Shown: positions 2,495-58,236 of the stretch, piece by piece
Position numbering within the stretch: the stretch's first letter is position 1
Layout: each line of letters starts with the position of its first letter
Origin: Chloroflexota bacterium
Lineage (GTDB): Bacteria; Chloroflexota; Anaerolineae; JAAEKA01
Length of the DNA: 64,000 nt
Reading direction: 5' to 3'
NCBI GenBank assembly: GCA_029558955.1
Contig: JAKQCW010000150.1
Coordinates: forward strand, 18,079 to 82,078
Notes under the pieces: model-generated
What the model was told of the DNA's origin: nothing
The model's input: the letters and a program-made list of their open reading frames with translations, nothing else
Databases searched by the model: none
Position numbers and translations under genes: made by a program

Positions 2495-2640
2495 GCTGGC
2501 TCGGTCAGAGACCGGCCAGAGCACCAATGAGGTGATTGGGGGCGGGCTGGCTCGGTCAGAGACCGGCCAGAGCGCGGGGCGGGGCGGGCTGGCTCGGTCA
2601 GAGACCGGCCAGAGCGCGGCGTGGTCAGAGGCTGGCCAAG
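2495..2640. repeat. Three or more tandem copies of a REP-like hairpin unit (GGGCTGGCTCGGTCAGAGACCGGCCAGAGC). A related copy lies at 12140..12240.
   Basis: The unit is directly repeated about 3 times at roughly 40-bp spacing. Each unit can fold as CTGGC(T)CGGTC-AGA-GACCGGCCAG. It generates the spurious ORFs 2476..2682 and 2478..2759 with GLARSETGQS repeats. Confidence 0.6.
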
Positions 2641-4544: not shown

Positions 4545-4620
4545 GGTGTGCGTGGCACAAATGCGTAATTCGTAACCCGGAGCGTGTGAGGATGGCAATT
4601 GTCTCCGGGTTACGGATTAC
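4545..4620. repeat. CGTAAC-type palindromic repeat (family A) copy.
   Basis: gcgtaattcgtaacccgg ... ccgggttacggattacgggttacgc forms an inverted repeat. The same motif family occurs at 7786..7828, 27900..28088 and 40300..40400. Confidence 0.5.
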
Positions 4621-4623
4621 GGG

Positions 4624-5550: not shown

Positions 5551-5603
5551 GGGAGACCTGGATTTGGGGAATGGTTAATGGGGAATTGGGGAATGGTGAA
5601 CGG

Positions 5604-6398
5604 TTAATGGTTAATGGCTAATGGGGGGTGCGGGGTGGGAAGGGCGACCCAGGACTGGAGGGTGGCCATGAAGCTGTGGGCGGTCATGTCCATGCTGAGC
5701 GGGGTGATGGAGATGTAGCCGTGGGCGACGGCGCCGATGTCGGTGCCATCTTCGATCACGCCGCTGGGCGGCTCGCCGCCGATCCAGTAGTAGGGCTGGC
5801 CTTTGGGGTCGGTCCGCCCGATCAACACATCGCGGTAGACGCGCTGGCCCAGACGGGTGACGACGACGCCCTGCACCTCAGCGCTGGGAATGGGGGGCGC
5901 GTTGACGTTGAAGAGCAGGTTGGGCGGCAGGCCGTTGGCCAGGATCAGCCGGGCCAGGTGCGCCACCGCGGCGGTGACCGCGGCGAAATCGGACCACTCG
6001 CGCGCGTCCAGCGAGACCGCGATGGCCGGCACGCCGCCCACCACCGCCTCCATCGCGCCGGCCACCGTGCCGCTGTAGGTGATGTCGTGGCCCAGGTTGC
6101 CGCCCTGGTTGATGCCTGAGACCACCAGGTCCGGCGGGTCAGGGATGGCGCCCAGCAGGGCCAGTCCGACGCAGTCCGAGGGCGCGCCGTTGGTGGTGTA
6201 GGCTGACGAGCCGTCGGCCAGCGTCACCTGGTTGATGCGCAGCGGCTTGTGCATGGTCTTGCTGTGGCCGGCCGCGCTCCAGTTGCGGTCAGGCGCAAAG
6301 ACCGTCACCTGGCCCACCGCCTCCAGCGCCTGTTTCAACGCCAGCAGGCCGGGCGAGTATACACCGTCGTCGTTGGTGATTAAGATATGTGCAGGCAT
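5604..6398 (-). CDS. surE: 5'/3'-nucleotidase SurE.
   Basis: It has the N-terminal MPAHILITNDDGVYSPGL motif typical of SurE, and is 264 aa. Confidence 0.9.
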   Translation of the reverse strand: MPAHILITNDDGVYSPGLLALKQALEAVGQVTVFAPDRNWSAAGHSKTMHKPLRINQVTLADGSSAYTTNGAPSDCVGLALLGAIPDPPDLVVSGINQGGNLGHDITYSGTVAGAMEAVVGGVPAIAVSLDAREWSDFAAVTAAVAHLARLILANGLPPNLLFNVNAPPIPSAEVQGVVVTRLGQRVYRDVLIGRTDPKGQPYYWIGGEPPSGVIEDGTDIGAVAHGYISITPLSMDMTAHSFMATLQSWVALPTPHPPLAINH

Positions 6399-7744: not shown

Positions 7745-8110
7745 GCGTGACGTGTTACGTGTTGCGCGCATGGGTCGTTGGGAGTCGTGATGCGTAACAC
7801 GTAACTCGTAACTCGTAACACGTAACCGGAATTGCGGGCGATGGCTGTGCGCATGTTGCGCGTTGTCCATGCCGGGTCCCGCAATCCGGAGTCGAGGCTT
7901 CAGCCGGGTCTGGCGAAAAGCCGGCTAAAGCCTCGACTCCTATCTGGCCGCAACCGGATCCCGCAGCCAGAGTCGAGGCTTCAGCCGGGTCTGGCGAAAA
8001 GCCGGCTAAAGCCTCGACTCCTATCTGGCCGCAGCCGGGTTTCGCAGCCGGAGTCGAGGCTTCAGCCGGGTCGGGCGAAAAGCCGGCTAAAGCCTCGACT
8101 CCTATCCGCC
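7745..8110. repeat. Composite intercistronic repeat block. It has family A CGTAAC hairpins (7786..7828) plus three copies of the 53-nt family B hairpin (7888..7940, 7970..8021, 8050..8102).
   Basis: The B unit is GGAGTCGAGGCTTCAGCCGGG-TCTGGCGAAAA-GCCGGCTAAAGCCTCGACTCC, with an approximately 20-bp stem. It is repeated 3 times with spacers of about 28 nt. It creates the spurious ORFs 7755..8804 (-) and 7832..8968 (+). Confidence 0.75.
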
Positions 8111-8156
8111 AGGAACCGCCGGCGCGCTTGCGGCGGAACGAACCAGCGATCTCCCC

Positions 8157-12138: not shown

Positions 12139-12243
12139 GGTAACTCCTGGCGCGGGCGGCGGGCTCGGTCGGAGACCGGCCCGAGCGGGCGGCGCGGGCG
12201 GCCCGGGCAGGGAATGCGGGCGGGCCTGAGCGGGCGATGGGGA

Positions 12244-20823: not shown

Positions 20824-22245
20824 TCACGCCTTAATCAGCGCGCCCTGATAGGCCTCAGCGCCGCGCGCGCTGGGGGCCAGGCCGCGGTTGATTTCGGCGT
20901 CATATTTGCCGGCCAGCAGGTCCCGGTAAAACTGGTAATTCACCCCTTTGACCTTCTCGTCGTCGGGGTAGCGGTGATAGTTGTCCTTGCTCATCAGGCT
21001 CTTGCCCTCGGCGATCAGTTGATAGCCCAAGGCTGAGCCGGGGTAGGGCGCGTAGAAGGCGATGGAGGGCATGACGCGCTTCATGCGCTTGAGCATGCGC
21101 ATGGTCTTGAAGGCGTCCTCCGGCTCCTCGCCGGGGATACCCAGCATGATGTTGGACCAGAAGACGGGCGGCCGCTCCCCTTTGGCCTCCAGCTCGTCGC
21201 CGATGCGGTTGACCAGGTCGATGGCGAAGAAATTGTCCTCCTCGGTGCATTCCTTGTTGAGCAGCTTGAGAATGCGGTCGCTGCCCGACTCGAAGCCGAT
21301 GGAGATGGTGCGCCAGTTGGTCTCCTTGACCAGCGCCTCGAACAGATCAGGCCACTGGCGCACGGTGTCGGCGCGGCCGGCTGCCCAGTAGCTCCAGTTC
21401 TTGGTCTGGCGCGGATATTTCTCGATCCACTCCTTGAGCCACTTGGGGTTCTGGAAGAACATGGAATCGTGGATCACCACCGAGCCGACGCCGTAGAGGC
21501 GATCCAGGGTGTTCAGCTCCTCGATCACCTGATCCACCGACCGGCGGCCGATGCGGGGGATGTAGCTGTTTTCGTTGCAGAAAACGCACTGCCAGGGGCA
21601 GACGCGGCTGGTGATGATGGTGGCCACCGGCCCCGGCCCCCAGCCGCATTCCGGCTCCATGGGCCAGCGCCACTTCCATTTGCGTTTCATGCGCCAGCCC
21701 ACCGGCTGGGGCCACATGGTGCGGTCGATGGTCGGCCACTCGGCCATGGACTTGGCGCCCTCGGCCGAGAAGACGCGCGGGAAGGCGCTGGGATCCTTGA
21801 CCAGGTCGACGATCACATTCTCGCCCGGGCCCATGCAGATGCGGTCGAACTCCGCCACCGCGGCCATCTCGTCGGGCGCGACCGTGGCGTGCATGCCGCC
21901 GGTCAGCACCAGGCCGTTGGGGTTGATCTGCTTGAAGAGCCGGGCGGCCTTGAGCGCGGGCGGATAGGTGTAGCTGCGCACGTTCATCAGCAGCATGTCA
22001 TAGCCGGCCATCTGCGGCGCCAGTTGATCCCACGAGGTCACGGCGCGGGTGGAGGCCAGGTCGGTCGGCACACCCGCCTGCTTCAGGATGGTGCGCAGCA
22101 GGCCCAGGCCGTGGTCCTGCCACTGCTCATGCGGCCCGCCGGGGTGCACCAGGTCGCCCAGGTCGCCCAGGTCAAGCCAGAGCCGGTTGGATTGTTTCTT
22201 CGGTCGTGAACTAAATAGAGACACGAGAGTTGCCTCCGCGGTCAA
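20824..22245 (-). CDS. Cobalamin-binding (class B) radical SAM enzyme.
   Basis: It has an N-terminal B12-binding Rossmann-like domain and the radical SAM CPWQCVFC (CX3CX2C) motif. Confidence 0.85.
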   Translation of the reverse strand: MTAEATLVSLFSSRPKKQSNRLWLDLGDLGDLVHPGGPHEQWQDHGLGLLRTILKQAGVPTDLASTRAVTSWDQLAPQMAGYDMLLMNVRSYTYPPALKAARLFKQINPNGLVLTGGMHATVAPDEMAAVAEFDRICMGPGENVIVDLVKDPSAFPRVFSAEGAKSMAEWPTIDRTMWPQPVGWRMKRKWKWRWPMEPECGWGPGPVATIITSRVCPWQCVFCNENSYIPRIGRRSVDQVIEELNTLDRLYGVGSVVIHDSMFFQNPKWLKEWIEKYPRQTKNWSYWAAGRADTVRQWPDLFEALVKETNWRTISIGFESGSDRILKLLNKECTEEDNFFAIDLVNRIGDELEAKGERPPVFWSNIMLGIPGEEPEDAFKTMRMLKRMKRVMPSIAFYAPYPGSALGYQLIAEGKSLMSKDNYHRYPDDEKVKGVNYQFYRDLLAGKYDAEINRGLAPSARGAEAYQGALIKA

Positions 22246-22292
22246 GCGATGTCAATGAAGCTGCCGTTTGGGTGCGTTGGAGCGCCGCTGGG

Positions 22293-23783
22293 TCAGTTGA
22301 CAATCGCCGGCATGGTCGCTTCGTCGGAGCTTGCGCGCCGGCCAGCCTTGGCGTGCTGATCATCGCGGCCCAGGAAGAAGCGGCGGGCATTGCTGATGGT
22401 GTTGGGCATCTCGGTCCAGAAGCTTTTCTTGGACATCTTTTCCCAGACGCGTTCGGGCCGGTAGAGATAGAAACGCCGGTAGGCCTCGCGCCATTTGCGC
22501 ACCACCAGATCGGGATCGTAGATGCCGTCGTTCATGGTGAAGCGCGATTTCTGCTCGTGGATGGCGTAGTCAGGCCACTCGTTGGCGAAGATCTCGCCGC
22601 CTTCCCGTATCATATCATACATCTTGGTGCCAGGGAAGGGCGCGGCCAGCATGAAGTTGGCCAGGTCGGGGTCCAGCTCCAGCGCCAGGTCGATGGTGGC
22701 GTTCATGGTCTCTTCGGTCTCGTTGGGCATGCCAAAGATGAAGAAGCCCATGGTCTGCAGGCCGGCCGCGCGGGCGTTCTTGAAGGCCTCGCGCACCTGG
22801 TCCAGCGTCTGACCCTTGCGGATCACGTTGCGCAGCATCCAGGGATCGCCGTTCTCCACGCCGAAGCCGACCCGCTTGCAGCCCGCGGCCTTCATCAGTT
22901 GGAAGAGCTCCAGGTCGGTGTGGTTGACCTTCATGCCGTGCACGGTGGTCCAGGGCACGGTGTTCAGCCCCTCGGCGATCAGCCGCCGCATCAGATCCTT
23001 GGCCCGGTCCAGCTTCAGGTTCCAGATGTCATCGGTGACGCCGATCTCGCTGGCGTGGAGCTCGTTGACCAGCCAGCGCCATTCGCCCACCACGTTCTCT
23101 ACGCTGCGGCCGCGCCAGGTGTCGCCGGTGACCGGCTTGGAGCAGAAGGTGCATTTGTAGGGGCAGCCGCGGCTGGTCAGAATGGTGAAGGAGCGCGCGT
23201 GGCGGTCCAGCCCATCGGTCAGCGGCTGCAGGTTGGTGTAACGGTCGATCTTGAACAGATCATGGGCCGGGTAGGGCAGGCTGTCCAGCTTTTCGATCAT
23301 GGGCGAGCTGTAGTCGGAGATGATCTCGCCGTCGCGCCCGCGCATGTGCATGCCGGGCAGCAAGTCCACCGGCCGGCCGGCCTCCAGGGTGTTCACCAGC
23401 TCCAGGAAGGTGTGTTCGGCCTCCCCTTTGAAGGCGAAGTCCACGTAGGGATGCTCCGGCCCCAGGCTCTCGCGCGGCATGATGGTCAGGTGCGGGCCGC
23501 CCAGCACCGTGTGCAGGCCGTAGCGCTTGGCGGTCGCGGCCATCTGCCACGCGTCGCCGATCAGCGGCGTGGTGGCGGTGATGCCGATCAACTGGAAGGG
23601 CTTGCCCTGCTGCGCGGCTTCCTCGATGGTGTGCTCGATGGGCTTGTCTTCGATGGCCGCGTCGTAGATCAGCGGCTCATGCCCGCCCTCGCGCAGCGTC
23701 GCCGCCAGATAGCCCAGCCCCAAGGGAATATGTTTACGCTCAGACCAGACTTTTGCTTCTGGGCTGGCAAGAATTACTCGCAT
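22293..23783 (-). CDS. Cobalamin-binding (class B) radical SAM enzyme.
   Basis: MRVILASP... B12 domain. Motif ..[14 protein letters not shown]... It is paralogous to 28090..29595. Confidence 0.85.
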
Positions 23784-23793
23784 AGTTTATGCC

Positions 23794-25134
23794 TTAACTG
23801 TATCGATAGTTGAACTCGCGCTTGTATCCGACATCGGTGCTGAAGGCCAGGACCGCGCGCTTGGGCCACTTGGCCACCGGGTGACGGCGGAGCTGGCGCG
23901 TGCCGCGCTGCAGCATCGACGACGGGCTGTACAGCTTGCGGCACAGCCAGTCGTGGGCGCTGGTCAGCTCGTCCACCGTCATCCTGCCCGGCAGATAGGT
24001 GACGTGCGTGGTGTCGTAGCGTTCCCAGGTGGTGTGGGGGATGATCCGGCCGGCCGCCAGCAGCTCTTGTCGCTGTTCAGTGCCAGGGTAGGGAGTCAAA
24101 ATGGTCGCGCTGACGCTGTCCAGCTCGCTGCTGCGCACGAAATCCCAGGTCTCTTGGAAAGTCTCGAAGGTGTCGTGGTCGAAGCCGAAGACGAAAAGGC
24201 CCACCACGCCGATGCCATGCTGGTGGACGGTCTGGATCACCTGGCGGTAGCGTTCGGTGTTGCCCTTGGCCTTGCCGCCCAGCTCCTTGCGGTTGGCTGG
24301 GTTGACCGACTCGAAGCCGATGAAGAACTTGTCCATGTGCGCCTCGCGCGCCAGGCTCAACAGCTCAGGGAAATCGGCCACCATCTGCTCAGCCTGGCAG
24401 GTCCAGCCGGCCAGCGGCAGCTTGGCCAGGGCGCGGAAAAGCTGCTCCATGTACTCCGGGTTGAGCTTGAAGTTCAGGCCAAAGTTGTCGTCGGTCAGGA
24501 AGAAACGCTGGATCTTGCGGCGCTCGATCTCCTCGACCACCTCCTCCACCGGCCGCAGCCGCATCTTGCGGCCTGAGACGCGGATCGCGGTGCAGAAGGT
24601 GCAGTTGCGCGGGCAGCCGCGCGTGATCTCCAGGTAGGGTGTCCAGTAGTTCTTGTGCTCGTTGACCTGGCGCAGCACGCGGTCTTGCAGCAGCGCCACG
24701 CCTGAATCCAGCGGCGCCCAGCTCTCGTCCACATAGGCCGGCTTGAGCACGCCCCGGTCGAAATCCTGGATGATCTGCGGCCAGGTGTAATAGCCCTCGC
24801 CCACGGCGATCACATCGGCCCACTGGGCCACCTCGTCGGGTACCAGCGTGGTGTGGGCGCCGCCCATGACCACCGTTGCGCCCTGCTTTTTGATGCGCTG
24901 GGCAATGGCTTTGGCGCGGTCGATCAGCAGCGTCTTGGCGCTGATGCCCACCAGGTCCTGCGGGCCCAGGCTCTGGATCGGCAGGTCCATCAGATCTTCG
25001 TCCCAGATCTCGACGGGAATCTCTGCGGGAACCAGCGAGGCCAGCCGCATCAGGGTGTACGGCTGGCTGGTGCCCTTGCCCAAATAGCGGCCATCGCGGC
25101 GCGGCTGGATCAAAATGACTTTGCGTATGGACAC
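23794..25134 (-). CDS. Cobalamin-binding (class B) radical SAM enzyme.
   Basis: Motif ..ITRGCPRNCTFCT... The start is taken at GTG 25134 (VSIRKVILIQP..., the typical N-terminus of this family). The ORF-track N-terminal extension to 25365 overlaps the upstream gene and is Pro/Ala-rich junk. Confidence 0.75.
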   Translation of the reverse strand: MSIRKVILIQPRRDGRYLGKGTSQPYTLMRLASLVPAEIPVEIWDEDLMDLPIQSLGPQDLVGISAKTLLIDRAKAIAQRIKKQGATVVMGGAHTTLVPDEVAQWADVIAVGEGYYTWPQIIQDFDRGVLKPAYVDESWAPLDSGVALLQDRVLRQVNEHKNYWTPYLEITRGCPRNCTFCTAIRVSGRKMRLRPVEEVVEEIERRKIQRFFLTDDNFGLNFKLNPEYMEQLFRALAKLPLAGWTCQAEQMVADFPELLSLAREAHMDKFFIGFESVNPANRKELGGKAKGNTERYRQVIQTVHQHGIGVVGLFVFGFDHDTFETFQETWDFVRSSELDSVSATILTPYPGTEQRQELLAAGRIIPHTTWERYDTTHVTYLPGRMTVDELTSAHDWLCRKLYSPSSMLQRGTRQLRRHPVAKWPKRAVLAFSTDVGYKREFNYRYS

Positions 25135-25216
25135 GAAGGAGCTTATCCTCTCAAGCGGTCGCCCAAAATGAGCGGTGCGCAGGTCTGAACCTGGCGCACC
25201 GTTGACCGATGGCTGT

Positions 25217-26395
25217 TCACTGGCTGCTGCCGGCGCTGCTGTCGTTGGGCTTCTTGTTCTCCAGCAGCGCGGCGTTGTAGTTGCCATAGCCCTTGCCCAG
25301 CCGCGGCTTCCACCAGGCCCATTCGACGCAGGTGTCGCAGGGGCTGACGGTGTGGGCCTGGCCATCGACGTGCAGTTGGCGCAGACCTTGCATCTTGGGG
25401 CCGTTCCAGTTCTTCATCACCTCGACCTGGCCGTCGGGGCTGATGACGTTGCCCAGGTCGTAGTTCAGGTTGAAGTCGCGGTCGCACATGGCGATGCGGC
25501 CATCCCAGTAGATATGCACGTGATACCACAGGTTGGGGCAGGCATAGCGCTGTTGCGGCACGAAATTGGCCGGGTCGTCGGCGCGCAGCTCGTTGATCTG
25601 CTCCACCTGGCCGCCCCAGGAGTCGAAGGGCTTGACGTTGATGTGATCGACGCCGGGCAGGTTCCAGGCGGCCACGAACTCGTCGATCTCATCCATGGTC
25701 TGCTCCATCTGGATGATCTGCAAGTTGACGTAAGGGTTGTGATAGCCCCCTTGGGTCTTCAGCTCCAGGAAGCGTCGGATGTTGTTGTTGGTCTTTTCGT
25801 AGTCGGCCTTGACGCGGATCGCCTCGTAGGTTTCAGGGCGAAAGCCGTCCAGGCAGAGGTAGATGGTGCCCAACCCGGCGTCCAGCAGCCCCTGGGCCTT
25901 GCGTTCGTCCAGCAGGGTGGCGTTGGTGCTGATCTCGGCCCGCAGCCCCTTCTTGCGACAATAGGCGATCATGTCGAAGATGCGTTTGTGCATCAGCGGC
26001 TCGCCCCAGATGTGCAGGGTGGTGGCCTTGACGTGCGGCGCCATCTGATCCACGATGGACTTGAACAGGTCGAAGTCCATGTAGCCTTTGGGACGCTTGA
26101 CCTGCTTCAGGCCTGTGGGGCACATGACGCAGTCCAGGTTGCAGATGTTGGTGGATTCGATGTACATGCGGTCAGGCGGCGGCACCAGGCGGGTCTGCCC
26201 CGTCTCGTAGGCCGCCCACTTGACCGGCGCCATGGCCTTTTGGCGCAGTTGTTTCAGCTCCCAGCCGGCTCGCCGCTGGACGCGCGCGGCGGTGGAGCGG
26301 TCGATCTCAGGCGGCGCGCTGAAGAGCGGCTGCTCCGGCCGGCGACTGCCAGAGCCGTTGCCCGTGTGGTTGGTTGGTGGTTCAGAAGCGTTCAC
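25217..26395 (-). CDS. Radical SAM / SPASM-domain enzyme.
   Basis: It has CNLDCVMC (CX3CX2C) and a C-terminal Cys-rich ..CPNLW..CDRDFN..CDTCVEW.. region, plus an approximately 90-aa N-terminal extension. Confidence 0.8.
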   Translation of the reverse strand: MNASEPPTNHTGNGSGSRRPEQPLFSAPPEIDRSTAARVQRRAGWELKQLRQKAMAPVKWAAYETGQTRLVPPPDRMYIESTNICNLDCVMCPTGLKQVKRPKGYMDFDLFKSIVDQMAPHVKATTLHIWGEPLMHKRIFDMIAYCRKKGLRAEISTNATLLDERKAQGLLDAGLGTIYLCLDGFRPETYEAIRVKADYEKTNNNIRRFLELKTQGGYHNPYVNLQIIQMEQTMDEIDEFVAAWNLPGVDHINVKPFDSWGGQVEQINELRADDPANFVPQQRYACPNLWYHVHIYWDGRIAMCDRDFNLNYDLGNVISPDGQVEVMKNWNGPKMQGLRQLHVDGQAHTVSPCDTCVEWAWWKPRLGKGYGNYNAALLENKKPNDSSAGSSQ

Positions 26396-26413
26396 TGGAA
26401 GGTGTCACCTGGC

Positions 26414-27883
26414 TCAGGCCCACGAGCTGGCGCCCTCGCGCGGCTGCGCCTGGCGGAATTTGGGGAAGAGGCCGGCGTTCAGCGCCACCTTGGCCGCGGC
26501 GTTGATCGGCTTGATCTTAGCCACCTGGTAGACGCGGCGTCCCCACTGCGGCCCGAAGTATTTGATGAACTTGCGCTGCTCTTTGGCATCCTGGAAGCGC
26601 TCGCGCGCCTGCAGGGCCATGCCGCTCAGCGTCTCATTGCTCACCTCAGAGACGTTCATGAAGGGCGCGATCTCAGCGGCGTAGTTGTTGTAGTAGTAGG
26701 TCTTGGTGAAGTCGGCGTTGTAGGCCATGCCGGGGTTGCGCAGCACCAGCTCGTTCCACAGCGCCGTGCCGGGGAAGGGGGTGGCGATGGAGAACATGGC
26801 CTCGGTCAGCTCCAGGCTGGAGGCGAACTCGATAGTCTCCTGCATGGTCGCTTCGTCATCGCCGGGCAGGCCCAGGATGAAGTAGCCCTTGGAGCGAATG
26901 CCCGCTTCCTCGGTCCACCGGATCGCGTCGCGCACCTGCTGCAGGTTGATGTGCTTGGAGGTGCGCCGCAGCACATCCTCGTTGCCGCTCTCGATGCCGT
27001 AGTGGATCTGGCGACAGCCGGCGCGATACATCTTCTTCAGCAGCTCCTGCGAGATGCGGTCGACCCGCGCCAAGCAGCGCCAGCGGTAGTCCAGCTTCTG
27101 CTCGATGAAGTAGTCGAGAATCTTCTCCAGCCGCTTGACGTCGATGGTGAAGAGGTCGTCGATGAAGTAGAAGTTGCGGACGTTGTAGGTCTGGGAAACC
27201 TGCTGCAGCTCAGCCACGATGTTCTCAGGGCTGCGCTGGTGATAGGAGCGGCCGACGATGCCCTTGAAGCAGAAGGAGCAGTTGTAGGGACAGCCGCGGC
27301 TGCTGAGGATCGTCAGCATGGTCTCGCCGTTGGGCGCGTAAAGGGGGTACTTGTCCAGCTCGTAGAGGTGGCGCGCCGGGTTGGGCAGCGCATCCAGATC
27401 CTCGATCGGCTTGCGGCTGCCGCCGCGGATGATGCGGCCATCTTCCTTGTACCACAGCCCCTGGATCTGATCCCAGCGGTGATCGCCCGATTCCCAGGCG
27501 CGCAAAAAGTCCTGGAAGATGTACTCCCCTTCGCCGTAGGCCAGGTAGTCGATGTGGGGATTGGCCAGCGTGCTGTCGGGCAGCGAGGTGGCGTGGGGGC
27601 CGCCGATGATCACCGGCGCGCCCAGGGCCTCTTTCAGCAGGGCCACCAACTGCTCCACATAGTGATACGAGGTGGTCATCGATGTGAACGCGATGATGTC
27701 GGGTTTGAAGTCGATCACCTGCTGCGCGTCCTGCTCGATGGGCTGGGACGGATAGAGGCCGAAGTCGTGGATGCGCACATCGTGCCCATCCTGCTCGGCG
27801 ATGCCCGCCAAATAGCCCAGCCCCAACAGGGGGTAGCTGTTGATCATTTCGTTCCACTTGGGGCCGATCAGGGAGATTCTCAT
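26414..27883 (-). CDS. Cobalamin-binding (class B) radical SAM enzyme.
   Basis: MRISLIGPK... B12 domain. Motif ..[14 protein letters not shown]... Confidence 0.85.
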   Translation of the reverse strand: MRISLIGPKWNEMINSYPLLGLGYLAGIAEQDGHDVRIHDFGLYPSQPIEQDAQQVIDFKPDIIAFTSMTTSYHYVEQLVALLKEALGAPVIIGGPHATSLPDSTLANPHIDYLAYGEGEYIFQDFLRAWESGDHRWDQIQGLWYKEDGRIIRGGSRKPIEDLDALPNPARHLYELDKYPLYAPNGETMLTILSSRGCPYNCSFCFKGIVGRSYHQRSPENIVAELQQVSQTYNVRNFYFIDDLFTIDVKRLEKILDYFIEQKLDYRWRCLARVDRISQELLKKMYRAGCRQIHYGIESGNEDVLRRTSKHINLQQVRDAIRWTEEAGIRSKGYFILGLPGDDEATMQETIEFASSLELTEAMFSIATPFPGTALWNELVLRNPGMAYNADFTKTYYYNNYAAEIAPFMNVSEVSNETLSGMALQARERFQDAKEQRKFIKYFGPQWGRRVYQVAKIKPINAAAKVALNAGLFPKFRQAQPREGASSWA

Positions 27884-27899
27884 GGTGTTTTTCCGTGGG

Positions 27900-28088
27900 G
27901 ATGATGCGTAGTACGTAATGCGTAACTCGTAATGCGTAACCGGAATGGCGGGCTTTGGCTGCGGTGGCGAGCGTTCCGGGTTACGGGTTACGTGTTACGA
28001 GTTACTCATCACGCACGCGCAACCGGAACAAAAAGCCCTCGTCGCCAGCCAAACATTCCGGGTTACGAGTTACGCATTACGTGTTACG
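27900..28088. repeat. Family A CGTAAC palindromic repeat cluster between rSAM genes.
   Basis: cgtaatgcgtaactcgtaatgcgtaaccgg ... ccgggttacgggttacgtgttacgagttac forms a long inverted repeat. A second copy (ccgggttacgagttacgcattacgtgttacg) follows. It is the only sizeable intergenic gap inside the rSAM cluster. Confidence 0.6.
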
Positions 28089-28089
28089 A

Positions 28090-39209: not shown

Positions 39210-40307
39210 ATGTCCGAGATCATGATCGAAAATGTCACCAAACGTTTCGGCAACTTCACAGCGGTGGACAACGTCTCGCTGACTGTCGCCAACCAGGAGT
39301 TCATGGTGCTGCTGGGCCCCAGCGGTTGCGGCAAGACCACCCTGTTGCGCGCCATCGCCGGACTGGGCATGCCCGACGATGGCCGCATCAGCATCGGCGG
39401 GCACGATGTGACCTACCTGGCCCCGCGCGACCGGCACATCTCCATGGTTTTCCAGAGCTATGCCATCTTCCCGCACATGGACGTCTTCGACAACATCGCC
39501 TTTGGACTGAAGATGCAGAAGATGGGCAAAGCCGAGATCCAGGAGCGCGTCAAGCAGGCGGCCGAAATGATGCACATCGAGCAGATGCTGGATCGTTTTC
39601 CCTCCAAGATGAGCGGCGGCCAGCGCCAGCGAGTGGCCGTGGCGCGCGCCATCGCCATGCAGGCCCAGGTATTGCTGATGGACGAGCCGCTGAGCAACCT
39701 GGATGCGCTGCTGCGGCTGGAGATGCGGGCCGAATTGAAACGGCTGCTGGCAGAGCTGGGCGCCACGACCATCTACGTCACCCACGACCAGATCGAGGCC
39801 ATGAGCATGGGCGACCGCATCGCGGTGATGCGCGCCGGCATCATCGAACAGGTGAGCAGTCCCACCACGATCTATGATTTTCCGGCCAACCAGTTCATCG
39901 GCGGCTTCATCGGCACGCCGCCCATGAATTTCCTCCACGGCCAGATGCAGCGCCAGAACGGCCACAGCGTGGTGCGCATCGGCGAGTTCGACCTGACGCC
40001 CCAGCCGCTGATGCAGCCGCTGTTGGCCTCCTACGACGGCAAGCCCATCGTGGTCGGCATCCGCGCTGAGAACATGGAGACGCTGTCCAGCCCGGCCGAG
40101 GGTGCGCTGCGCGCCAGCGTGCTGGTGGTCGAGCCGCTGGGTTCGCAGAATCTCCTGACGGTCAAACTGGGTGACAGCCAGATGAAAGTCTCTACCCACC
40201 CTGATTTCACCACGCAGCCCGACGCCGATGTCTGGCTTCGTTTCCCAGCCGACAAGATCCGCTGGATCGATCCGGACACGAAGCGGGCGTTGTATCCGAA
40301 TGCGTGA
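39210..40307 (+). CDS. Sugar ABC transporter ATP-binding protein (MalK/UgpC-like).
   Basis: It has Walker A GPSGCGKTT, LSGGQRQRVAVARA, LLMDEP and a C-terminal TOBE domain. RBS AAGGAGA. Confidence 0.9.
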   Translation: MSEIMIENVTKRFGNFTAVDNVSLTVANQEFMVLLGPSGCGKTTLLRAIAGLGMPDDGRISIGGHDVTYLAPRDRHISMVFQSYAIFPHMDVFDNIAFGLKMQKMGKAEIQERVKQAAEMMHIEQMLDRFPSKMSGGQRQRVAVARAIAMQAQVLLMDEPLSNLDALLRLEMRAELKRLLAELGATTIYVTHDQIEAMSMGDRIAVMRAGIIEQVSSPTTIYDFPANQFIGGFIGTPPMNFLHGQMQRQNGHSVVRIGEFDLTPQPLMQPLLASYDGKPIVVGIRAENMETLSSPAEGALRASVLVVEPLGSQNLLTVKLGDSQMKVSTHPDFTTQPDADVWLRFPADKIRWIDPDTKRALYPNA

Positions 40308-40400
40308 CGAGTAATGCGTAACCCGTAACCCGGAATAGCCTCCCGCTTGCGCTCACTTCGGGTTACGCATTACCTGGTACGAGTTACGGGTTAAGACCCT
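40300..40400. repeat. Family A CGTAAC palindromic repeat.
   Basis: acgagtaatgcgtaacccgtaacccgg ... cgggttacgcattacctggtacgagttacgggtta. Confidence 0.5.
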
Positions 40401-49889: not shown

Positions 49890-50080
49890 CAAACGGCGCT
49901 TCCAGATCTGGGCGGAGCCGAGGCTACGGGGTCAGCAGGGCAAGGGTGTTTGCGCGGCGCTTCCAAACATGGGCGGAGTCGAGGCTTCAGCCGGGTCTGG
50001 CATGGGCGGAGTCGAGGCTTCAGCCGGGTCTGGCCGAGGTGTTTCGAGCACTGACCGCCTGAAGGCTCGACTCCGTGTCC
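49890..50080. repeat. Family B (GGAGTCGAGGCTTCAGCCGGG) repeat copies: two direct left arms plus one right arm.
   Basis: gggcggagtcgaggcttcagccgggtctggc occurs twice, then gcctgaaggctcgactccg. Confidence 0.6.
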
Positions 50081-50121: not shown

Positions 50122-50361
50122 TCACGGCAGCGCATAGCAGGCGCCGGCGTTGGACATGACGTAGGGGCAGCCGTTGACGTGGCCGCAGACCGTGCAGTCG
50201 ATGGCCGCGCGGTCCTCGATGCGCTCCAGCCGGCCCATGCGCACCAGCTCGGCCAGCATCCCCTCCAGCACCGCCGGCTCCAGGTCGAGCTGCGCGGCCA
50301 GCAGGTCCACGCTGAGCGGGCCGGGGGCGTTGCCAAAAAGAGTTAGGAGTTGACGTAACAT
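50122..50361 (-). CDS. feoC: FeoC-like ferrous iron transport regulator (winged helix plus Cys cluster). It is possibly extended N-terminally through the heptad repeat to 50715.
   Basis: Sequence: MLRQLLTLFGNAPGPLSVDLLAAQLDLEPAVLEGMLAELVRMGRLERIEDRAAIDCTVCGHVNGCPYVMSNAGACYALP. It has a wHTH plus a C..C....C......C cluster, like FeoC/YhgG, and lies downstream of feoB. Confidence 0.6.
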   Translation of the reverse strand: MLRQLLTLFGNAPGPLSVDLLAAQLDLEPAVLEGMLAELVRMGRLERIEDRAAIDCTVCGHVNGCPYVMSNAGACYALP

Positions 50362-50365
50362 TGTG

Positions 50366-50770
50366 GTCGGTGGTCGGTGGTCGGTGAACGGTGAACGGTG
50401 AACGGTGAACGGTGGTCGGTGGTCGGTGGTCGGTGAACGGTGGTCGGTGGTCGGTGAACGGTGGTCGGTGAACGGTGAACGGTGAACGGTGAACGGTGAA
50501 CGGTGAACGGTGGTCGGTGGTCGGTGAACGGTGAACGGTGGTCGGTGGTCGGTGAACGGTGGTCGGTGAACGGTGAACGGTGGCCGGTGAACGGTGGTCG
50601 GTGAACGGTGAACGGTGGCCGGTGGTCGGTGAACGGTGAACTGTGAATGGTGAATGGCAAACTGCGAATAGTGAACGGTCATCGGTGCAGCGATCACCCT
50701 CCGTTTACCGTTCACCGTTCACCGTTTACCCTCCGCTTACCGTTCACCGTTCACCGTTTACCCTCCACCG
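50366..50770. repeat. Heptanucleotide microsatellite (GGTGAAC/GGTGGTC)n of about 40 units, followed by inverted (GTTCACC)n copies.
   Basis: The direct 7-bp repeats run from 50366 to about 50650. Reverse-complement copies (ccgttcaccgttcaccgtttaccc) lie at 50700..50770. The region is stop-free on the minus strand in all frames, giving HRPPFTV-type translations. Confidence 0.9.
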
Positions 50771-50771
50771 T

Positions 50772-52943
50772 TCACCCTCCGAACAGCCACCCAGCCACCC
50801 GGTAAGTCACGAAACCGGTGATCCAGGCCAGCGCCAGCAGGTAGGTGAAGCTGAAGGCCATCCATTTGCCGCCGAATTCGGCCTTCAGCGCGCCCATGGC
50901 AGCGATGCAGGGGGCGTAGAGCAGCACGAAGACCAGAAAGGCCAGCGCGGACGCGGGGGTGAAATGGGTTTGCAGCGCCTGGCTGAGGGCCGTGTCGGTC
51001 TGGGGCGGTTCATCTCCCATCAGGTCGACGCCGGGGATCATGCTCAACACGATGCGCGCCGAGTCGACTACCGCCTGGCCAAAGCCGACCACGATGCCGC
51101 GCACGTCCGCGGCCAGATCCACCGGCTCAGGCGGCTCGTCCGGCGCGTCTCCCAGGTAGATCACGGCCATGCTGCTGATCACCACCTCCTTGGCCACCAG
51201 TCCCGTGACCAGCGAGCCCGCGGCTTGCCAATTGCCAAAGCCCAGCGGCTCGAAGGCGGGAGCGATCGCGCCGGCCAGCCGGCCAAAGACGCTCTCCTCA
51301 GTGCTGGCCACCCCCACCGGCAGGTTGAGCAGCGCCCAGACGGTGACGGAGGCGGCCAGGATCAGCGTGGCCGCCTTGTGTACGAATTCCGCGCTGTGCC
51401 GCCACATGTGGGTGCGCAGGCCGCGCCAGGCCGGCAGGCGATAGGGGGGCAACTCCAACACGAAGAGCGAATCGGTGGTCTTGCCGAAAAGGGTGCGGCG
51501 CATCAGCAGGCCGGTCAGCACAGCCAGCGCGATGCCCAGCAGGTAGAGCCCAAAGATCACCGCGCTGGCGTGCCGGGGGAAGAAGGCCGCGGCGAAGATC
51601 ACGTAGACCGGCAGGCGGGCCGCACAGCTCATCAGCGGCACCATCAGCCCGGTCAGAATGCGGTCACGGCGGTTTTCCAGCGTGCGGGTGGCCAGAATGC
51701 CGGGCACGTTGCAGCCAAAGCCGACGATCAGCGGGATGAAGCTCTTGCCGTGCAGTCCCAGCAGGTGCATCAGCTTGTCCATGACGAACGCTGCCCGCGC
51801 CATGTAGCCGCTGTCCTCCAGCAGCGCCAGGCAGAGATAGAGAATCAGCAACACCGGCAGGAAGACCAACACCCCGCCCACGCCGGCCATCACCCCATCG
51901 ACCAGCAGCGAGGTCAGCCAGGCCGGCGCGGCCACGGCGCTCAAGGCGGCCGCGACCCAGTTGGCCAGCACACCGTTGACGGTGGCATCGATCCAGTCCA
52001 CAAAGGGGGCGGAGGCGTCGGCGGTCAGCTTGAAGACCAGCGCCATCAGCCCGAAAAAGATGGGCAGACCCAGCACGCGGTGGGCGGCGATGTCGTCGAT
52101 GCGGTCGGTCAGGCTGCGCGGGCGATGTCCGCCGTGGCGCTTGACCACCTGATGGGCCAGGCCGTGCACGAAGCCATAGCGGCGGTCGGCCACCAGCAGC
52201 TCCACGTCGTCGCCGTAGACAGCCTGGACGCGGGCCGCGGCCTCCTCAGCCTGCTGGCGCAGCGCCGCGGCCTGCGGCGTGTCGCCCAGCGCCTGTGCGA
52301 CCAGCCGATCTCCTTCCAGCAGCTTGAGCGTGGTATAGCGCGGCGTGTCGCTGGCGATCAGCGCGCCGAGCTGCGGCTGCAAGGCGGCGATCTCCGCTTC
52401 CAGCTCGTTCCCGTAGTCGATCAGGTTGGGGTGTGACGCGGCCTCGGTCACGGCCAGGCCGACCAGGTCCATCAGCCCCTGGCGACGGGTGCCCACCGTG
52501 GGAACCACCGGCACGCCCAGCAGCCGGGCCAGCAGTTCCACGTCGATGGCGATCCCCTCGGCTTCGGCGCGGTCCATCATGTTCAACGCCAGCGTCACCG
52601 GCGCGCCCAGCTCCAGCACCTGCGCGGCCAGGTAGAGGTTGCGCTCCAGGTTGGTGGCGTCGGCGACGACGATGGCTGCATCGGGCCGCTGCTCCAGGAT
52701 GAAATCGCGCGCGATGACCTCCTCCGGCGAGTGCGCGCTGAGGCTGTACGTGCCGGGCAGGTCGACCAGCGTCACCGCCTGGCCGTTCCAGCGCACGACG
52801 CCCGACGCGACCTCCACCGTCTTGCCGGGCCAGTTGCCCACATGTTGTCTGCCCCCGGTCAGGGTGTTGAAGATGGTGCTTTTGCCGGCGTTGGGGTTGC
52901 CTGCCAGAACCACCACCGGCGAGGTGTCTGCTTTACCGGCCAT
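50772..52943 (-). CDS. feoB: Ferrous iron transport protein B.
   Basis: It has N-terminal G-protein motifs ([13 protein letters not shown]) plus a polytopic membrane domain, and is 723 aa. Confidence 0.95.
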
Positions 52944-53535: not shown

Positions 53536-53973
53536 ATGTCCGGTCACCTCGCCAGTATCGTCTATAGTCCCGACCCCGGCAGCTACAATCGCCATCCATT
53601 ACATGAGGCCATGCTTTTGGCCGGCTACGGCATCGAGGGCGACCGCAAAGGGGGCAACCCCCGGCGCAACCTGAACATCATGGATCAGGAGATGGTGGTG
53701 ACGCTGGCGGCTGAGGGCTTTCCCAGCGGCGCCGGTGTGCTGGGCGAGAACCTGATCATCGCCGGAGTCGATCTGAGCGCGCAGCCTGAGGGCGCGCGGC
53801 TGCGCATCGGCTCTGAGGCGGTGATCGAGGTGGTGAGCCTGCGCAAGCCCTGCTACAAGCTCACCGCCCTGGATGCGCGCATGCCCGACGCGGTGGTCGG
53901 CCGCGTCGGCGTGATGGCCCGCGTTGTGGCAGGTGGGCCGATCCGTGTGGGCGACGCGGTGGCGGTGCTGTGA
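53536..53973 (+). CDS. MOSC-domain protein (YiiM-like).
   Basis: It is 145 aa with ..GIEGDRKGGNPRRNLNIMD.. and a conserved Cys in ..LRKPCYKL... RBS CAGGAG. Confidence 0.7.
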   Translation: MSGHLASIVYSPDPGSYNRHPLHEAMLLAGYGIEGDRKGGNPRRNLNIMDQEMVVTLAAEGFPSGAGVLGENLIIAGVDLSAQPEGARLRIGSEAVIEVVSLRKPCYKLTALDARMPDAVVGRVGVMARVVAGGPIRVGDAVAVL

Positions 53974-54067: not shown

Positions 54068-55977
54068 ATGTGGCATACCTACTACCAACCGACAACGTTG
54101 TCTGAGGCGCTGGCCCTGCTCAGCCAGCACGGCCAGGAGGCGCGCGTCATCGCCGGCGGCACCGATCTGGTCATCGAGCTGGAACGGGGCGTGCGCAGCC
54201 AGCACATCCTGATCGACATCACGCGAATTCCGGGGCTGGACGGCATCGAGCTGGGGCCTGCTGCTGCGGTTCAGACGGGTCTCGATACGGCGCAGACGCC
54301 TACTCGACCGACGGATGTTGGGCCGGCGCAGACGGGTCTCGATACGGCGCAGACGCCTACTCGACCCACGGATGACTGGCCGGCGCATACGGGTCTCGAT
54401 ACGGCGCAGACGCCTACTCGACCCACGGATGATTGGCCGGCGGGGGAGGAGATCACCCTCGGCCCGCTGGTGACGCACAACGACGTGGCCGCGTCGGCGC
54501 TGCTGGTGGAACGGGTTTTCCCCTTGGCCCAGGCCTGCTGGGAGGTGGGCGCGCCGCAGATTCGCAACCGCGGCACCGTGGCCGGCAATCTGATCACCGC
54601 CAGCCCGGCCAACGACACCATCACCCCGCTGTGGGCGCTGGATGGCGCGGTGACGCTGGCCAGCGCGCAGCGCGGGGAGCGGCGGTTGACCTTCGACCAG
54701 TTCTATCTGGGGGTGCGCCGCACGGCCATGCAGCCGGACGAGATGTTGACGGCGATCCACCTGCGCGCCCTGCCGGCCAACGCCCGCGGCGTGTTCATCA
54801 AGCTGGGCCTGCGCCGCGCCCAGGCCATCTCGCTGGTCAACGTCGCGGTGGTGCTGGAATTCGCCCAACCGCCGCTCGGGCCGGTCTCTGACCGTGCCCG
54901 CGTCGTCCACGCCCAACCGCCGCTCGGGCCGGTCTCTGACCGTGCCCGCGTCGCCCACGCTCAACCGCCGCTCGGGCCGGTCTCCGACCGTGCCCGCGTC
55001 GCCCACGCTCAACCGCCGCTCGGGCCGGTCTCTGACCGTGCCCGCGTCGCCCACGCCCAACCGCCGCTCGGGCCGGTCTCCGACCGTGCCCGCGTCGCCC
55101 GCGTCCGCATCGCCCTGGGCGCCGTCGCGCCCACCATCGTGCGCGCCGAGGCGGCCGAGGCCAGCCTGCTGGACCAGCCGTTGAGCGACGCGGCCATCGC
55201 CCGCGCCGCCGACCTGGCCATGCAGGCCGCCCGCCCCATCGATGATCTGCGCGCCAGCGCCGGCTATCGCCGCGCCATGGTCGGCGTCCTGGTGGAGCGC
55301 GCCCTGCGCCAACTGCGCAGCGGCACGGAGCGCGCCGGCTTCCCGGCCGATCCCGTTCTGCTCAGGACCACGGCGAGCCCGCACTATTCCGGCGTCGAGC
55401 TGCCGGTTACGGGGCGCGGCGCAGCCATCCCGTTGACGCTCAACCATCGCTCGATCGCCCTTGACCACGCCGCCGGCAAGACTCTCCTGCGCGCCCTGCG
55501 CGAAGATGGCCACATGACCGGCGTCAAGGAGGGCTGCGCCGAAGGAGAGTGCGGCGCCTGCACCGTCTGGCTGGACGGCAAGGCGGTGATGGCCTGTCTG
55601 GTGCCGGCGGAGCGGGCCGCGGGGTGTGAGGTGGTGACGGTGGAAGGGCTGGCGCAGCAGGGGTCTCGATACGGCGCAGACGCCTACTCGACCCACGATG
55701 ATTCGCCCGGCGCGGAGGGGTCTCGATACGGCGCAGACGCCTACTCGACCCACGATGATTCGCCCGGCGGGTTGCACCCGCTGCAGGCTGCGTTTGTGGC
55801 TGAGGGCGCGGTGCAGTGCGGCTATTGCACCCCCGGCCTGCTCATGTCCGGCGCGATGTTGCTGGAGGAGCGCCCCCAGCCCACGATGGCCGAGATCCAG
55901 CAGGCGCTGGCCGGCAACCTCTGCCGCTGCACCGGCTATGCCAAGGTGGCGGCGGCGATCGAGAAGGCAGGTAGATC

Positions 55978-55981
<4 letters not shown>
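54068..55981 (+). CDS. Molybdenum hydroxylase (xanthine dehydrogenase / aerobic CODH family) fused FAD-binding (CoxM/XdhB-like) plus 2Fe-2S (CoxS-like) subunit. It carries three in-frame tandem-repeat insertions.
   Basis: The FAD domain is marked by ..[12 protein letters not shown].. and ..[11 protein letters not shown]... The ferredoxin part is marked by ..[13 protein letters not shown].. and ..[14 protein letters not shown]... Repeat-encoded inserts are [13 protein letters not shown] x3 (54272..54440), [16 protein letters not shown] x5 (54863..55102) and [17 protein letters not shown] x2 (55662..55768). Confidence 0.8.
54863..55102 (+). repeat. Five tandem 48-nt intragenic repeats, encoding [16 protein letters not shown] x5 in-frame.
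   Basis: The unit gcccaaccgccgctcgggccggtctc(t/c)gaccgtgcccgcgtcg(t/c)ccac occurs 5 times head-to-tail inside the CoxM/S-like CDS. Confidence 0.85.

Positions 55982-58236
<2,255 letters not shown>

Follow-up and report, generated by a model that had tools for sequence, protein, structure and literature searches.

Two families of tiny dispersed hairpin repeats as probable colonists of three loops in a molybdenum hydroxylase subunit of Chloroflexota

In a 64,000-nt stretch of DNA from a Chloroflexota bacterium (hereafter the window), a gene for a subunit of a molybdenum (Mo) hydroxylase contains three in-frame tandem arrays within one uninterrupted open reading frame (ORF), much as an earlier note on this DNA had described (Table 1). 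Probably, two families of tiny hairpin repeats, both distributed genome-wide, have colonised three loops of this functional enzyme subunit. It is concluded that these are REP/RPE-like hairpin elements, which were tolerated in permissive loops and then expanded by slippage.

Table 1. Positions of the repeat arrays, dispersed repeat copies, and genes in the window.
Feature	Position	Strand	Cores	Remarks
MOSC-domain gene	53536..53973	+		Pfam MOSC; directly upstream of the Mo-hydroxylase FAD/FeS gene
Mo-hydroxylase FAD/FeS gene	54068..55981	+		ORF, 637 aa, Pfam, PDB sequence matches, Foldseek, dN/dS
Array 1, family A x3.0	54272-54442	+	54277-54310, 54334-54367, 54391-54424	period 57 nt, 94% matches
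Array 2, family B x5.0	54862-55105	+	54875-54900, 54923-54948, 54971-54996, 55019-55044, 55067-55092	period 48 nt, 96% matches over 54862-55100
Array 3, family A x2.1	55651-55769	+	55661-55694, 55718-55751	period 57 nt, 96% matches
Molybdopterin-binding large subunit	55978..58236	+		Pfam Ald_Xan_dh_C, MoCoBD_1, MoCoBD_2
Family B copies x3	2496-2521, 2547-2572, 2589-2614	-		leader just upstream of probable glycosyltransferase start
Family B single copy	12160..12185	-		between co-directional genes, just upstream of MSNRKQ start

The product of the gene is a fusion of the FAD (medium) and 2x[2Fe-2S] (small) subunits of a molybdenum hydroxylase of the xanthine dehydrogenase/CO dehydrogenase family, with the Pfam domains FAD_binding_5, CO_deh_flav_C, Fer2, and Fer2_2; domain order, both Cys clusters, and the neighbouring MoCoBD large-subunit gene all agree with membership of this family. 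The modelled subunit resembles CutM/CoxM and the FeS subunits with Foldseek TM scores of 0.86-0.91, and an exact-protein look-up with the 637-aa product returned no match. Concerning the operon, the start of the large-subunit gene overlaps the stop of the fused gene (GTGA), and the gene order is syntenic in orthologues; the MOSC gene, the start of which was placed according to the 145-aa product of its orthologues, is present at every orthologous locus (e.g., L001, L002, L005, and L115).

Given multiple-of-3 unit lengths, two readings had been proposed in the earlier note: selection for frame preservation in an expressed enzyme, or a gene being eroded by repeat proliferation. Although about 27% of the ORF consists of repeat, and the neighbouring large-subunit gene also possesses a small repeat-derived, heptamer-like insert (57283-57333; variable or absent among orthologues), a decaying pseudogene is very improbable: the 637 codons are uninterrupted, dN/dS amounts to 0.21-0.24 in every pair compared among the insert-bearing orthologues, neither the eight Fe-S ligands (C490/C495/C498/C510 and C584/C587/C619/C621) nor the FAD motifs vary among 116 homologues, the conserved domains are modelled confidently, and the operon combines conserved synteny with a stop codon that overlaps the next start. 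The first of the two readings is thus the one upheld, and we conclude that this is, as judged from sequence and structural model, a functional enzyme gene under purifying selection rather than a decaying one.

The three arrays occupy a beta-hairpin loop of the FAD domain (array 1, protein residues ~63-125), a beta-turn of the CO_deh_flav_C domain (array 2, residues ~266-343), and the linker between the two [2Fe-2S] domains (array 3, Fer2/Fer2_2, residues ~530-568). The third had been placed inside the ferredoxin domain; the alignments to the PDB small subunits 3hrd_D and 4zoh_C, however, are interrupted here, after residue 85 and before residue 89 of those chains, i.e., at the Fer2/Fer2_2 linker. 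Concerning the units, the earlier description stands for arrays 1 and 2 (57 nt in three and 48 nt in five copies), whereas the third period is 57 nt (17 aa plus a 2-aa joint) instead of 51 nt, and repeats described as perfect match at 94-96%. The insert lengths read from the alignment (62, 74, and 35 aa by site) come to about 170 aa in place of the 156 aa first given, and the protein exceeds the insert-free orthologue P0014 (470 aa) by 167 aa. The identity of the elements in arrays 1 and 3 was correctly recognised: they have a 34-nt core in common, which is read in different frames (offsets 2 and 0, respectively). A 36-nt core yields five matches with at most one mismatch, all within this ORF, where none are expected (100 shuffles), and the array 2 unit likewise five against none expected; the cores of array 2 are read as LGPVSDRAR. 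In the AlphaFold model, residues 71-120, 276-334, and 533-566 are the only ones with a pLDDT below 50, most of the remainder reaching at least 90; the first of these segments lies between the predicted strands 60-64 and 127-131 and the second between the predicted strands 254-265 and 342-352, such that the inserts come to lie in low-confidence loops. Two reading frames, the second dispersed hairpin family in array 2, and orthologues with the same elements in the same loops are additions to what had been noted before.

The core of family A reads GGGT[C/T]TCGATACG[G/C]CGCAGACG[C/G]CTACTC[G/A]ACC, and a full single insert, as seen from comparison of an empty with a filled site 3, comprises 51 nt. 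The core pattern occurs in more than 106 stretches from about eight Anaerolineae/Caldilineales metagenome-assembled genomes (MAGs), often at contig ends; this sample consists of the matches listed by an exact-pattern scan, so that, apart from the four degenerate positions, part of its uniformity was imposed by the pattern. Since the core is dispersed across MAGs, arrays 1 and 3 represent one dispersed, slippage-prone element that is not private to the gene; within the window, family A is confined to it. Where family A copies cluster, they share a strand and follow each other head to tail, and the reverse complement of the core exhibits GTAG, a hallmark of REPs, beside the inner stem. The core of family B is CTC[G/T]GGCCGGTCTCYGACCG[A/T]GCC[C/A]G, and copies are found in many related loci as well as elsewhere in the window (Table 1), where the conserved PCYNE..DDGS motifs suggest that the gene downstream of the three clustered copies encodes a GT2-type glycosyltransferase. 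An Rfam scan of the whole window revealed no family at the gathering threshold. The window also contains heptamer arrays (5560-5626, 7776-7839, 27890-28087, and 50300-50776). A CRISPR-like array was ruled out, as there are no spacers and the arrays are in-frame within a gene.

The cores of both families fold as hairpins. Among the 114 family A copies listed, positions 5/30 are C-G in 62 and T-A in 50 (two exceptions), positions 14/23 are G-C in 65 and C-G in 46 (three exceptions), and all four combinations of these pair types are present. The covariation score of 0.187 compares with 0.082 in shuffles (0 of 500 as high) and with at most 0.045 when the partners are slid, whereas for the closing pair 1/34 covariation is unconvincing (47 of 83 cells unpaired). 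No G-U intermediates exist at the covarying pairs (CG 50, UA 31, other 2; GC 48, CG 32, other 3). The stem of family B exhibits G-C/T-A and C-G/G-C swaps, and its RNA hairpin in array 2 reaches -16.9 kcal/mol (z -4.6). Whole repeat units folded as DNA are indistinguishable in energy from their shuffles (z -0.5, -1.5, and 0.0; -0.5 to 0.0 for the 57-nt units), and only the cores stand out, such that the case for hairpins is made from the covariation and the cores alone. Only two or three compensatory changes in master copies, followed by amplification, could by themselves account for the family A covariation.

Inside genes, the elements are subject to a strict filter. By a looser ORF criterion, 52 of the 105 family A arrays among the matches listed are intragenic, and among the 71 scorable ones there are 27 strictly intragenic arrays, spread over about 19 different host genes, all of which (27 of 27) are in sense orientation. 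Eighteen of them use one benign frame and nine the other, none an Arg-rich or Cys-containing frame; only two of the five stop-free frames are thus in use, and only in sense. The periods of intragenic arrays (36, 39, 45, 48, 57, 60, 66, and 78 nt) are without exception multiples of 3, which answers the question previously raised about intragenic copies. Intergenic periods include 29, 32, 41, 43, 46, 50, 53, 65, 67, 97, and 134 nt, with a multiple of 3 in only about a third of the arrays, and intergenic family A copies are found in both orientations. In a different Mo-hydroxylase paralogue (L053), family A is situated at the same VEGLA/LHP junction in the other frame; this insert, array 3, and an insert between NuoE and NuoF are all located at inter-domain junctions. 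Going by these frame statistics, with their strict constraints on frame, orientation, and multiples of 3, the inserts are probably translated, and they would accordingly constitute disordered loops which the enzyme tolerates. The same constraints speak against removal of the inserts by an intein, an intron, or a bypass-type mechanism.

Orthologues in related species possess the same elements in the same three loops, in other copy numbers, and insert-free orthologues of about 470 aa exist as well, including a close one (P0014/L115). Site 1 holds three copies in the window, two in L002-L004, and one in L063, in genomes that are 96-99.9% identical. Loop 2 is empty in L115, L116, and L027 and is occupied by a different palindrome in L001, L006, and L063; three pairs of close relatives differ at this site by family B, an unrelated palindrome, or nothing. 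At dS 0.32-0.45, cores are near-identical between orthologues, whereas spacers differ in sequence and length. The close relatives include MAGs from wastewater-type samples.

With family A copies lying so often at MAG contig ends, and with a sudden shift at array 1 in the identity between the window and L002 (99.17% before the array, 99.98% after it), which could reflect strain switching during assembly, the arrays might be taken for mis-joined or collapsed MAG repeats. Such an artefact deserves hardly any credence: four independent metagenome assemblies contain the identical allele P0001, which is 99% identical to the window ORF, has equal copy numbers in arrays 2 and 3, and matches the window at 100% over 1655 nt including both of these arrays; other species' orthologues carry arrays at the same sites, and all arrays keep the reading frame.

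A further explanation holds that the repeat peptides are selected as protein, namely as T/P/Q-rich or G/S/Y-rich disordered tethers serving in docking, localisation, or solubility, with the DNA repeats as a mere footprint. Several species (dS 0.3-0.45) retain inserts in these three loops, which would fit this, as would the use of only two benign frames and the recurrence of the same peptides in many unrelated proteins. However, one DNA core gives unrelated peptides in its two frames, and it is the nucleotide core that is conserved, including A/T-ending codons in a gene with a GC3 of about 85%, whereas the spacer peptides vary. Numerous copies lie between genes and point in either direction, copy number differs between near-identical genomes, loop 2 may hold an unrelated element or nothing, and close orthologues (P0014/L115) lack any insert. 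Selection on the peptides is therefore considered quite improbable.

Unlikely, too, is a role of the hairpins in the mRNA, be it ribosome pausing at domain boundaries for folding and cofactor insertion or a REP-like protection against exonucleases. Compensatory changes do keep the pairing intact even in coding copies, the intragenic copies are all in sense, the inserts in array 3, L053, and NuoE-NuoF are found at inter-domain junctions, and the family B copies elsewhere in the window are in sense within transcribed leaders or intergenic spacers. Nevertheless, 15 intergenic family A arrays are opposite to both neighbours and only two in the same orientation as both, and the lack of G-U intermediates is more compatible with pairing required on both strands of DNA than with RNA pairing. 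The toxic-looking peptides encoded in the other frames suffice to explain why intragenic copies occur in sense only, and the insert-free orthologues, as judged by their conservation, function without hairpins.

The preferred explanation, colonisation of loops by dispersed hairpin elements, has its closest counterparts in several known repeat systems. Rickettsia palindromic elements (RPEs) are palindromic selfish repeats of about 100-150 bp, mostly in single copies, in-frame in many unrelated housekeeping genes of alphaproteobacterial endosymbionts (Ogata et al. 2000, reviewed in PMC10969869). The elements studied here share with them the in-frame palindromic inserts, the fold-compatible extra peptides (translation here being inferred), and sites common to related species. 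They also differ from RPEs: the single insert is 51 nt long and the elements measure only 26-51 nt, their host is a free-living member of the Chloroflexota, and they are read in two frames, commonly form variable-number tandem arrays, and give way to other families in one and the same loop. IS200/IS605-type insertion leaves no target-site duplication, and at site 3 likewise none is seen. REPs are imperfect palindromes of 20-40 nt, extragenic by definition, which are mobilised by RAYT (IS200/IS605-like) transposases (PMC3116915). The 34-nt core of family A corresponds to them as a short imperfect palindrome with conserved sequence and high-copy dispersal, sometimes in tandem, whereas a third to a half of the family A copies are intragenic (27 of 71 scorable arrays) instead of predominantly extragenic. 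The head-to-tail arrays differ from REPINs, which are inverted doublets, and MITEs, which have terminal inverted repeats derived from an IS and a target-site duplication and usually exceed 50 bp, are not matched by a single hairpin with a 51-nt insert devoid of flanking duplication and no IS among the 20 window ORFs by Pfam.

Like intragenic VNTRs, the arrays have multiple-of-3 units and a copy number that differs among closely related strains (site 1: 3, 2, and 1), but their unit is a dispersed element that also exists between genes and in other genes, and they reside in a redox enzyme of the cytoplasm instead of a surface protein. Filamentous bacteria with many heptamer tandem repeats in their genomes are also hosts of small dispersed repeats (SDRs). 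In cyanobacteria, according to the accounts that cite the original description, they are hairpin-forming dispersed repeats of 21-27 nt (Elhai et al. 2008, cited in PMC5861425 and PMC3116915). As far as these accounts go, they resemble the elements found here in being very small dispersed hairpins accompanied by heptamer arrays, and differ in phylum and sequence. The literature searched contained no paper linking Chloroflexi or Caldilinea with REP-type repeats.

Concerning their origin, the elements spread or are exchanged at the DNA level, and as single-stranded DNA they would form hairpins. The statistics of frame, orientation, and period suggest that a copy survives within a gene only if it enters a permissive loop, in a multiple of 3 nt, in sense, and in one of the two frames, both of which would encode short hydrophilic, uncharged, and disordered peptides. 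The resident core, together with a variable flank, is then duplicated and deleted in a VNTR-like manner, as seen in the copy-number and period differences among orthologues, presumably by replication slippage or unequal recombination. A tblastn search of 730 kb with approximate RAYT and IS608 TnpA sequences as queries returned nothing below E = 0.2, and Pfam detected no transposase, IS, or mobilising enzyme among the 20 window ORFs, only ordinary metabolic and transport genes. Comparison of the empty with the filled site 3 reveals a clean 51-nt insert with neither a target-site duplication nor a defined insertion motif, such that the spread may be owed either to true transposition or to recombination. 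More tentatively, and with considerable doubt, families A and B and the loop 2 palindrome might together form an undescribed class of mobile hairpin elements of 26-51 nt in Chloroflexota, in which the 51-nt unit and the two benign frames would be adaptations to genes, and which would be actively mobilised, possibly by an HUH-type single-strand transposase, with turnover at strain level and enzyme loops that are routinely variable.

A mobilising enzyme, if found, would define a new mini-transposon system. For practical purposes, the repeats fragment MAG assemblies, make proteins longer, and may misguide annotation; their copy-number variation at strain level could be used to type filamentous Chloroflexota. 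The selection filter is measurable in these genomes (two of five stop-free frames, sense only), and the Mo-hydroxylase loops, including the Fe-S inter-domain linker, provide a natural map of insertion tolerance, accepting 35-75 disordered residues. The elements would thereby constitute a second natural case, besides Rickettsia, of selfish palindromic DNA living in genes for essential-type enzymes without killing them, here with elements three times smaller than in Rickettsia and in a free-living, environmentally abundant phylum.

The gene at 54068-55981 (+) encodes a fused FAD/2x[2Fe-2S] subunit of a molybdenum hydroxylase as an open reading frame (ORF) of 637 aa without interruption, in which Tandem Repeats Finder and ORF translation place three in-frame tandem arrays, as the earlier note had described. 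The five 48-nt repeats of array 2 were likewise recovered (5 matches to the unit versus 0 expected), whereas the repeats are not perfect, as had been claimed, but show 94-96% matches, and the unit of the third array measures 57 nt instead of 51 nt. The total insert, previously put at about 156 aa, amounts to around 170 aa in a site-by-site reading of the alignment, the protein being 167 aa longer than its insert-free orthologue P0014 (637 vs 470 aa). A 36-nt core has five matches at ≤1 mismatch, 5/5 within this ORF and with 0 expected by chance. Arrays 1 and 3 do share one DNA core (family A), as noted before, but the two arrays use it in different reading frames.

Repeat arrays and genes located in the window
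Feature	Position	Strand	Description
Array 1	54272-54442	+	period 57 nt, 3.0 copies, 94% matches
Array 2	54862-55100	+	period 48 nt, 5.0 copies, 96% matches
Array 3	55651-55769	+	period 57 nt, 2.1 copies, 96% matches
MoCoBD large-subunit gene	55978-58236	+	Pfam; start overlaps stop of ORF 54068-55981
Heptamer-like insert	57283-57333		short, in large-subunit gene
Further family B copies	2496-2614		directly upstream of a start codon
Further family B copy	12160-12185		directly upstream of a start codon
Third-family array	7872-8128		81 nt x3
Third-family array	31419-31616		26/27 nt x7
Third-family array	49893-50034		33 nt x2
Third-family array	63173-63287		37 nt x3.2
Heptamer repeats	50300-50776		
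Heptamer repeats	5560-5626		
Heptamer repeats	4603-4634		
Heptamer repeats	7776-7839		
Heptamer repeats	27890-28087		
Heptamer repeats	40286-40387		
Duplicated ORF	33888-36773		single, 961 codons
ORF row	20824-31204	-	seven similar ORFs, ~400-540 codons

Purifying selection acts on the host gene. Its erosion by repeat proliferation, which the earlier note had considered, is rejected by a dN/dS of 0.21-0.24 in every comparison among insert-bearing orthologues and by the invariance of eight/eight Fe-S cysteines and of the FAD motifs in 116 homologues. Pfam identifies FAD_binding_5, CO_deh_flav_C, Fer2 and Fer2_2 domains, with a MOSC gene upstream; orthologous loci L001 and L002 share the order feoABC / MOSC / FAD-FeS / MoCoBD, and locus L005 retains the FAD-FeS / MoCoBD pair and the downstream genes. 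The short insert in the large-subunit gene is variable in L005 and absent from L001, so that the neighbouring gene is touched by the same kind of process. Elsewhere the window consists of ordinary chromosomal DNA (61-71% G+C), and Pfam detected no transposase among the 20 window ORFs scanned. Within the duplicated ORF a stretch of 1233 nt is present twice (76-81% identity), which yields two tandem solute-binding-protein domains, and 3/3 ORFs scanned from the minus-strand row (20824-22251, 26414-27994, 29633-31204) are B12-binding radical SAM proteins.

Concerning the position of the inserts in the protein, array 3 does not lie inside the ferredoxin domain, as had been proposed, but falls exactly where PDB sequence alignments to the small subunits 3hrd_D and 4zoh_C are interrupted (residues 85 to 89), in the linker joining the two [2Fe-2S] domains. 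In an AlphaFold2 model built on the 116 homologues, all four domains are confident (Foldseek TM 0.86-0.91 against CutM/CoxM and FeS subunits), and only residues 71-120, 276-334 and 533-566, corresponding to the three arrays, combine pLDDT <50 with a lack of secondary structure. Each of these segments is flanked by two well-modelled secondary-structure elements.

Two dispersed hairpin families exist, and base pairing is maintained. With a pattern degenerate at four positions, where any of the 16 combinations was accepted, the family A core was found, among the matches listed, in >106 DNA stretches from around 8 MAGs labelled Anaerolineae, Anaerolinea or Caldilineales, many of them at contig ends, with two more on probably mis-binned contigs. 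Two contigs bearing the elements, L063 (CAYZYG010000210.1) and L096 (JAJTXQ010000074.1), were assigned to bins of Vicinamibacterales and Dehalococcoidia; at least L063 is probably mis-binned, because it is 96-98.5% identical to the window. Among 114 distinct copies listed, positions 5/30 are C-G in 62 and T-A in 50 (2 exceptions) and positions 14/23 are G-C in 65 and C-G in 46 (3 exceptions), with all four combinations of the two pairs present, although amplified copies are related, not independent, such that the count of compensatory events may be small. Both covarying pairs lie within stems of the fold (((((..((...((((....))))...))))))), and 94% of cells are paired over 83 distinct copies among those listed. 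The covariation score of 0.187 compares with 0.082 in shuffles (0/500 reach 0.187) and with ≤0.045 when partners are slid. Since G-U intermediates are absent at these pairs, pairing on both DNA strands fits better than RNA-only pairing.

By a strict test (open frame and coding-type GC3 pattern across 240 nt either side), 27 of the family A arrays listed are intragenic, and 27/27 are in sense orientation, 18 in one frame and 9 in a second; none of these 27 uses the other stop-free frames of the core (one sense, two antisense). Listed intergenic copies occur in either orientation, more often opposite to their neighbours. Every listed intragenic period is a multiple of 3 (36, 39, 45, 48, 57, 60, 66, 78), whereas intergenic periods are mixed (29, 32, 41, 43, 46, 50, 53, 65, 67, 97, 134 and some chance multiples of 3), which favours the frame-preserving selection suggested earlier. 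Removal of the inserts before translation would predict no constraint on frame or orientation, and we therefore infer that they are translated. The listed intragenic copies occupy about 19 different host genes, including those for an aminotransferase, PurD, a class A PBP, a UvrD-like helicase and a PKS-like protein, as well as a NuoE-NuoF fusion, where the inter-domain linker is affected. In a Mo-hydroxylase paralogue (FeS-MoCoBD fusion; L053 3797-6946, -), family A sits in the same inter-domain junction (VEGLA|LHPLQ), where it is read in the other frame (AGLDTPQTATRPT), an independent strike on the same permissive linker. The insertions are in frame, sense-oriented and located in disordered loops.

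Array 2 belongs to family B, CTC[G/T]GGCCGGTCTCYGACCG[A/T]GCC[C/A]G, which folds into a hairpin of 10 bp and a single bulged base (-16.9 kcal/mol, z -4.6); its stem exhibits G-C/T-A and C-G/G-C swaps. Single family B hairpins are found in relatives (L001 2778-2853, L025 3266-3341, L039 156-231, L059 5014-5089) as part of a longer conserved unit, …TGAAAATAG – hairpin – TTTTCATCC…GTGCG, possibly a composite element or else a structured RNA; no counterpart was seen within the window. Intergenic tandem arrays are also built from a third family (core GGAGTCGAGGCTTCAGCC), whose 81-nt unit folds as DNA into a long and almost perfect hairpin (-25.3 kcal/mol, z -4.8). Immediately 3' of feoB lie around 55 copies of the heptamer CGGTGAA/CCGTTCA; other heptamer arrays in the window consist of AATGGTT and CGTAACN/GTTACGN. 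These heptamer arrays resemble the heptamer-rich genomes of filamentous cyanobacteria.

Tandem expansion is lineage-specific, and the elements turn over at strain level. Baseline homologues measure 465-485 aa; one orthologue clade carries the same peptides in the same three loops at differing copy numbers and, within the FAD-FeS linker, a fourth insert of the heptamer type. The cores are near-identical across species whose 4-fold degenerate sites share only 74-80% identity (dS 0.32-0.45). Spacers differ between orthologues, as do unit lengths (site 1, 57 vs 45 nt; site 3, 57 vs 39; site 2, 48 vs 60 vs 39/66), so that the arrays must have expanded separately in each lineage. A single insert is a clean 51 nt (17 codons), and comparison of the empty sites of L005 and L115 with the single-copy sites of L116 and L027 revealed no target-site duplication. 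At site 1, the window has 3 units and L002-L004 have 2 despite 99.2-99.98% identity, whereas L063 has 1. Mismatches to L002-L004 are concentrated at the 5' edge of array 1: identity to L002 is 99.17% upstream and 99.98% downstream, and 15/28 upstream mismatches fall within 319 nt (window 54068-54330 vs L002 3711-4025), which suggests that the sequence was remodelled locally, that recombination had a breakpoint here, or that the assembly switched strains at the repeat. At site 2, L063 possesses an unrelated palindrome (EFSEFPEFSSAGNWRNSEELS; hairpin -26 kcal/mol) in place of the window's five family B units; L008 and L001 (dS 0.08) likewise differ by family B versus palindrome, and L027 and L006 by empty versus palindrome.

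The literature searched yielded no account of such elements from Chloroflexota. Their closest working likeness is to the Rickettsia palindromic elements, which are inserted in frame in many metabolic genes (PMC10969869), but they are set apart from these by their size and host, by being read in two frames, and by tandem amplification and element replacement. REPs (PMC3116915) are alike in size and palindromy, but are extragenic and organised in doublets; the arrangement here is not REPIN-like. The presence of heptamer arrays alongside the elements is reminiscent of the cyanobacterial SDRs (Elhai 2008, cited in PMC5861425). HUH/RAYT-type mobilisation would be expected to give small size, a conserved imperfect palindrome and no target duplication; approximate RAYT and IS608 TnpA queries (tblastn) found no gene of this type in the 730 kb searched. 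The elements would propagate as DNA, in the form of single-strand hairpins, intragenic copies would be purged by selection save those in benign frames at permissive loops, and copy number would be altered by slippage or unequal recombination.
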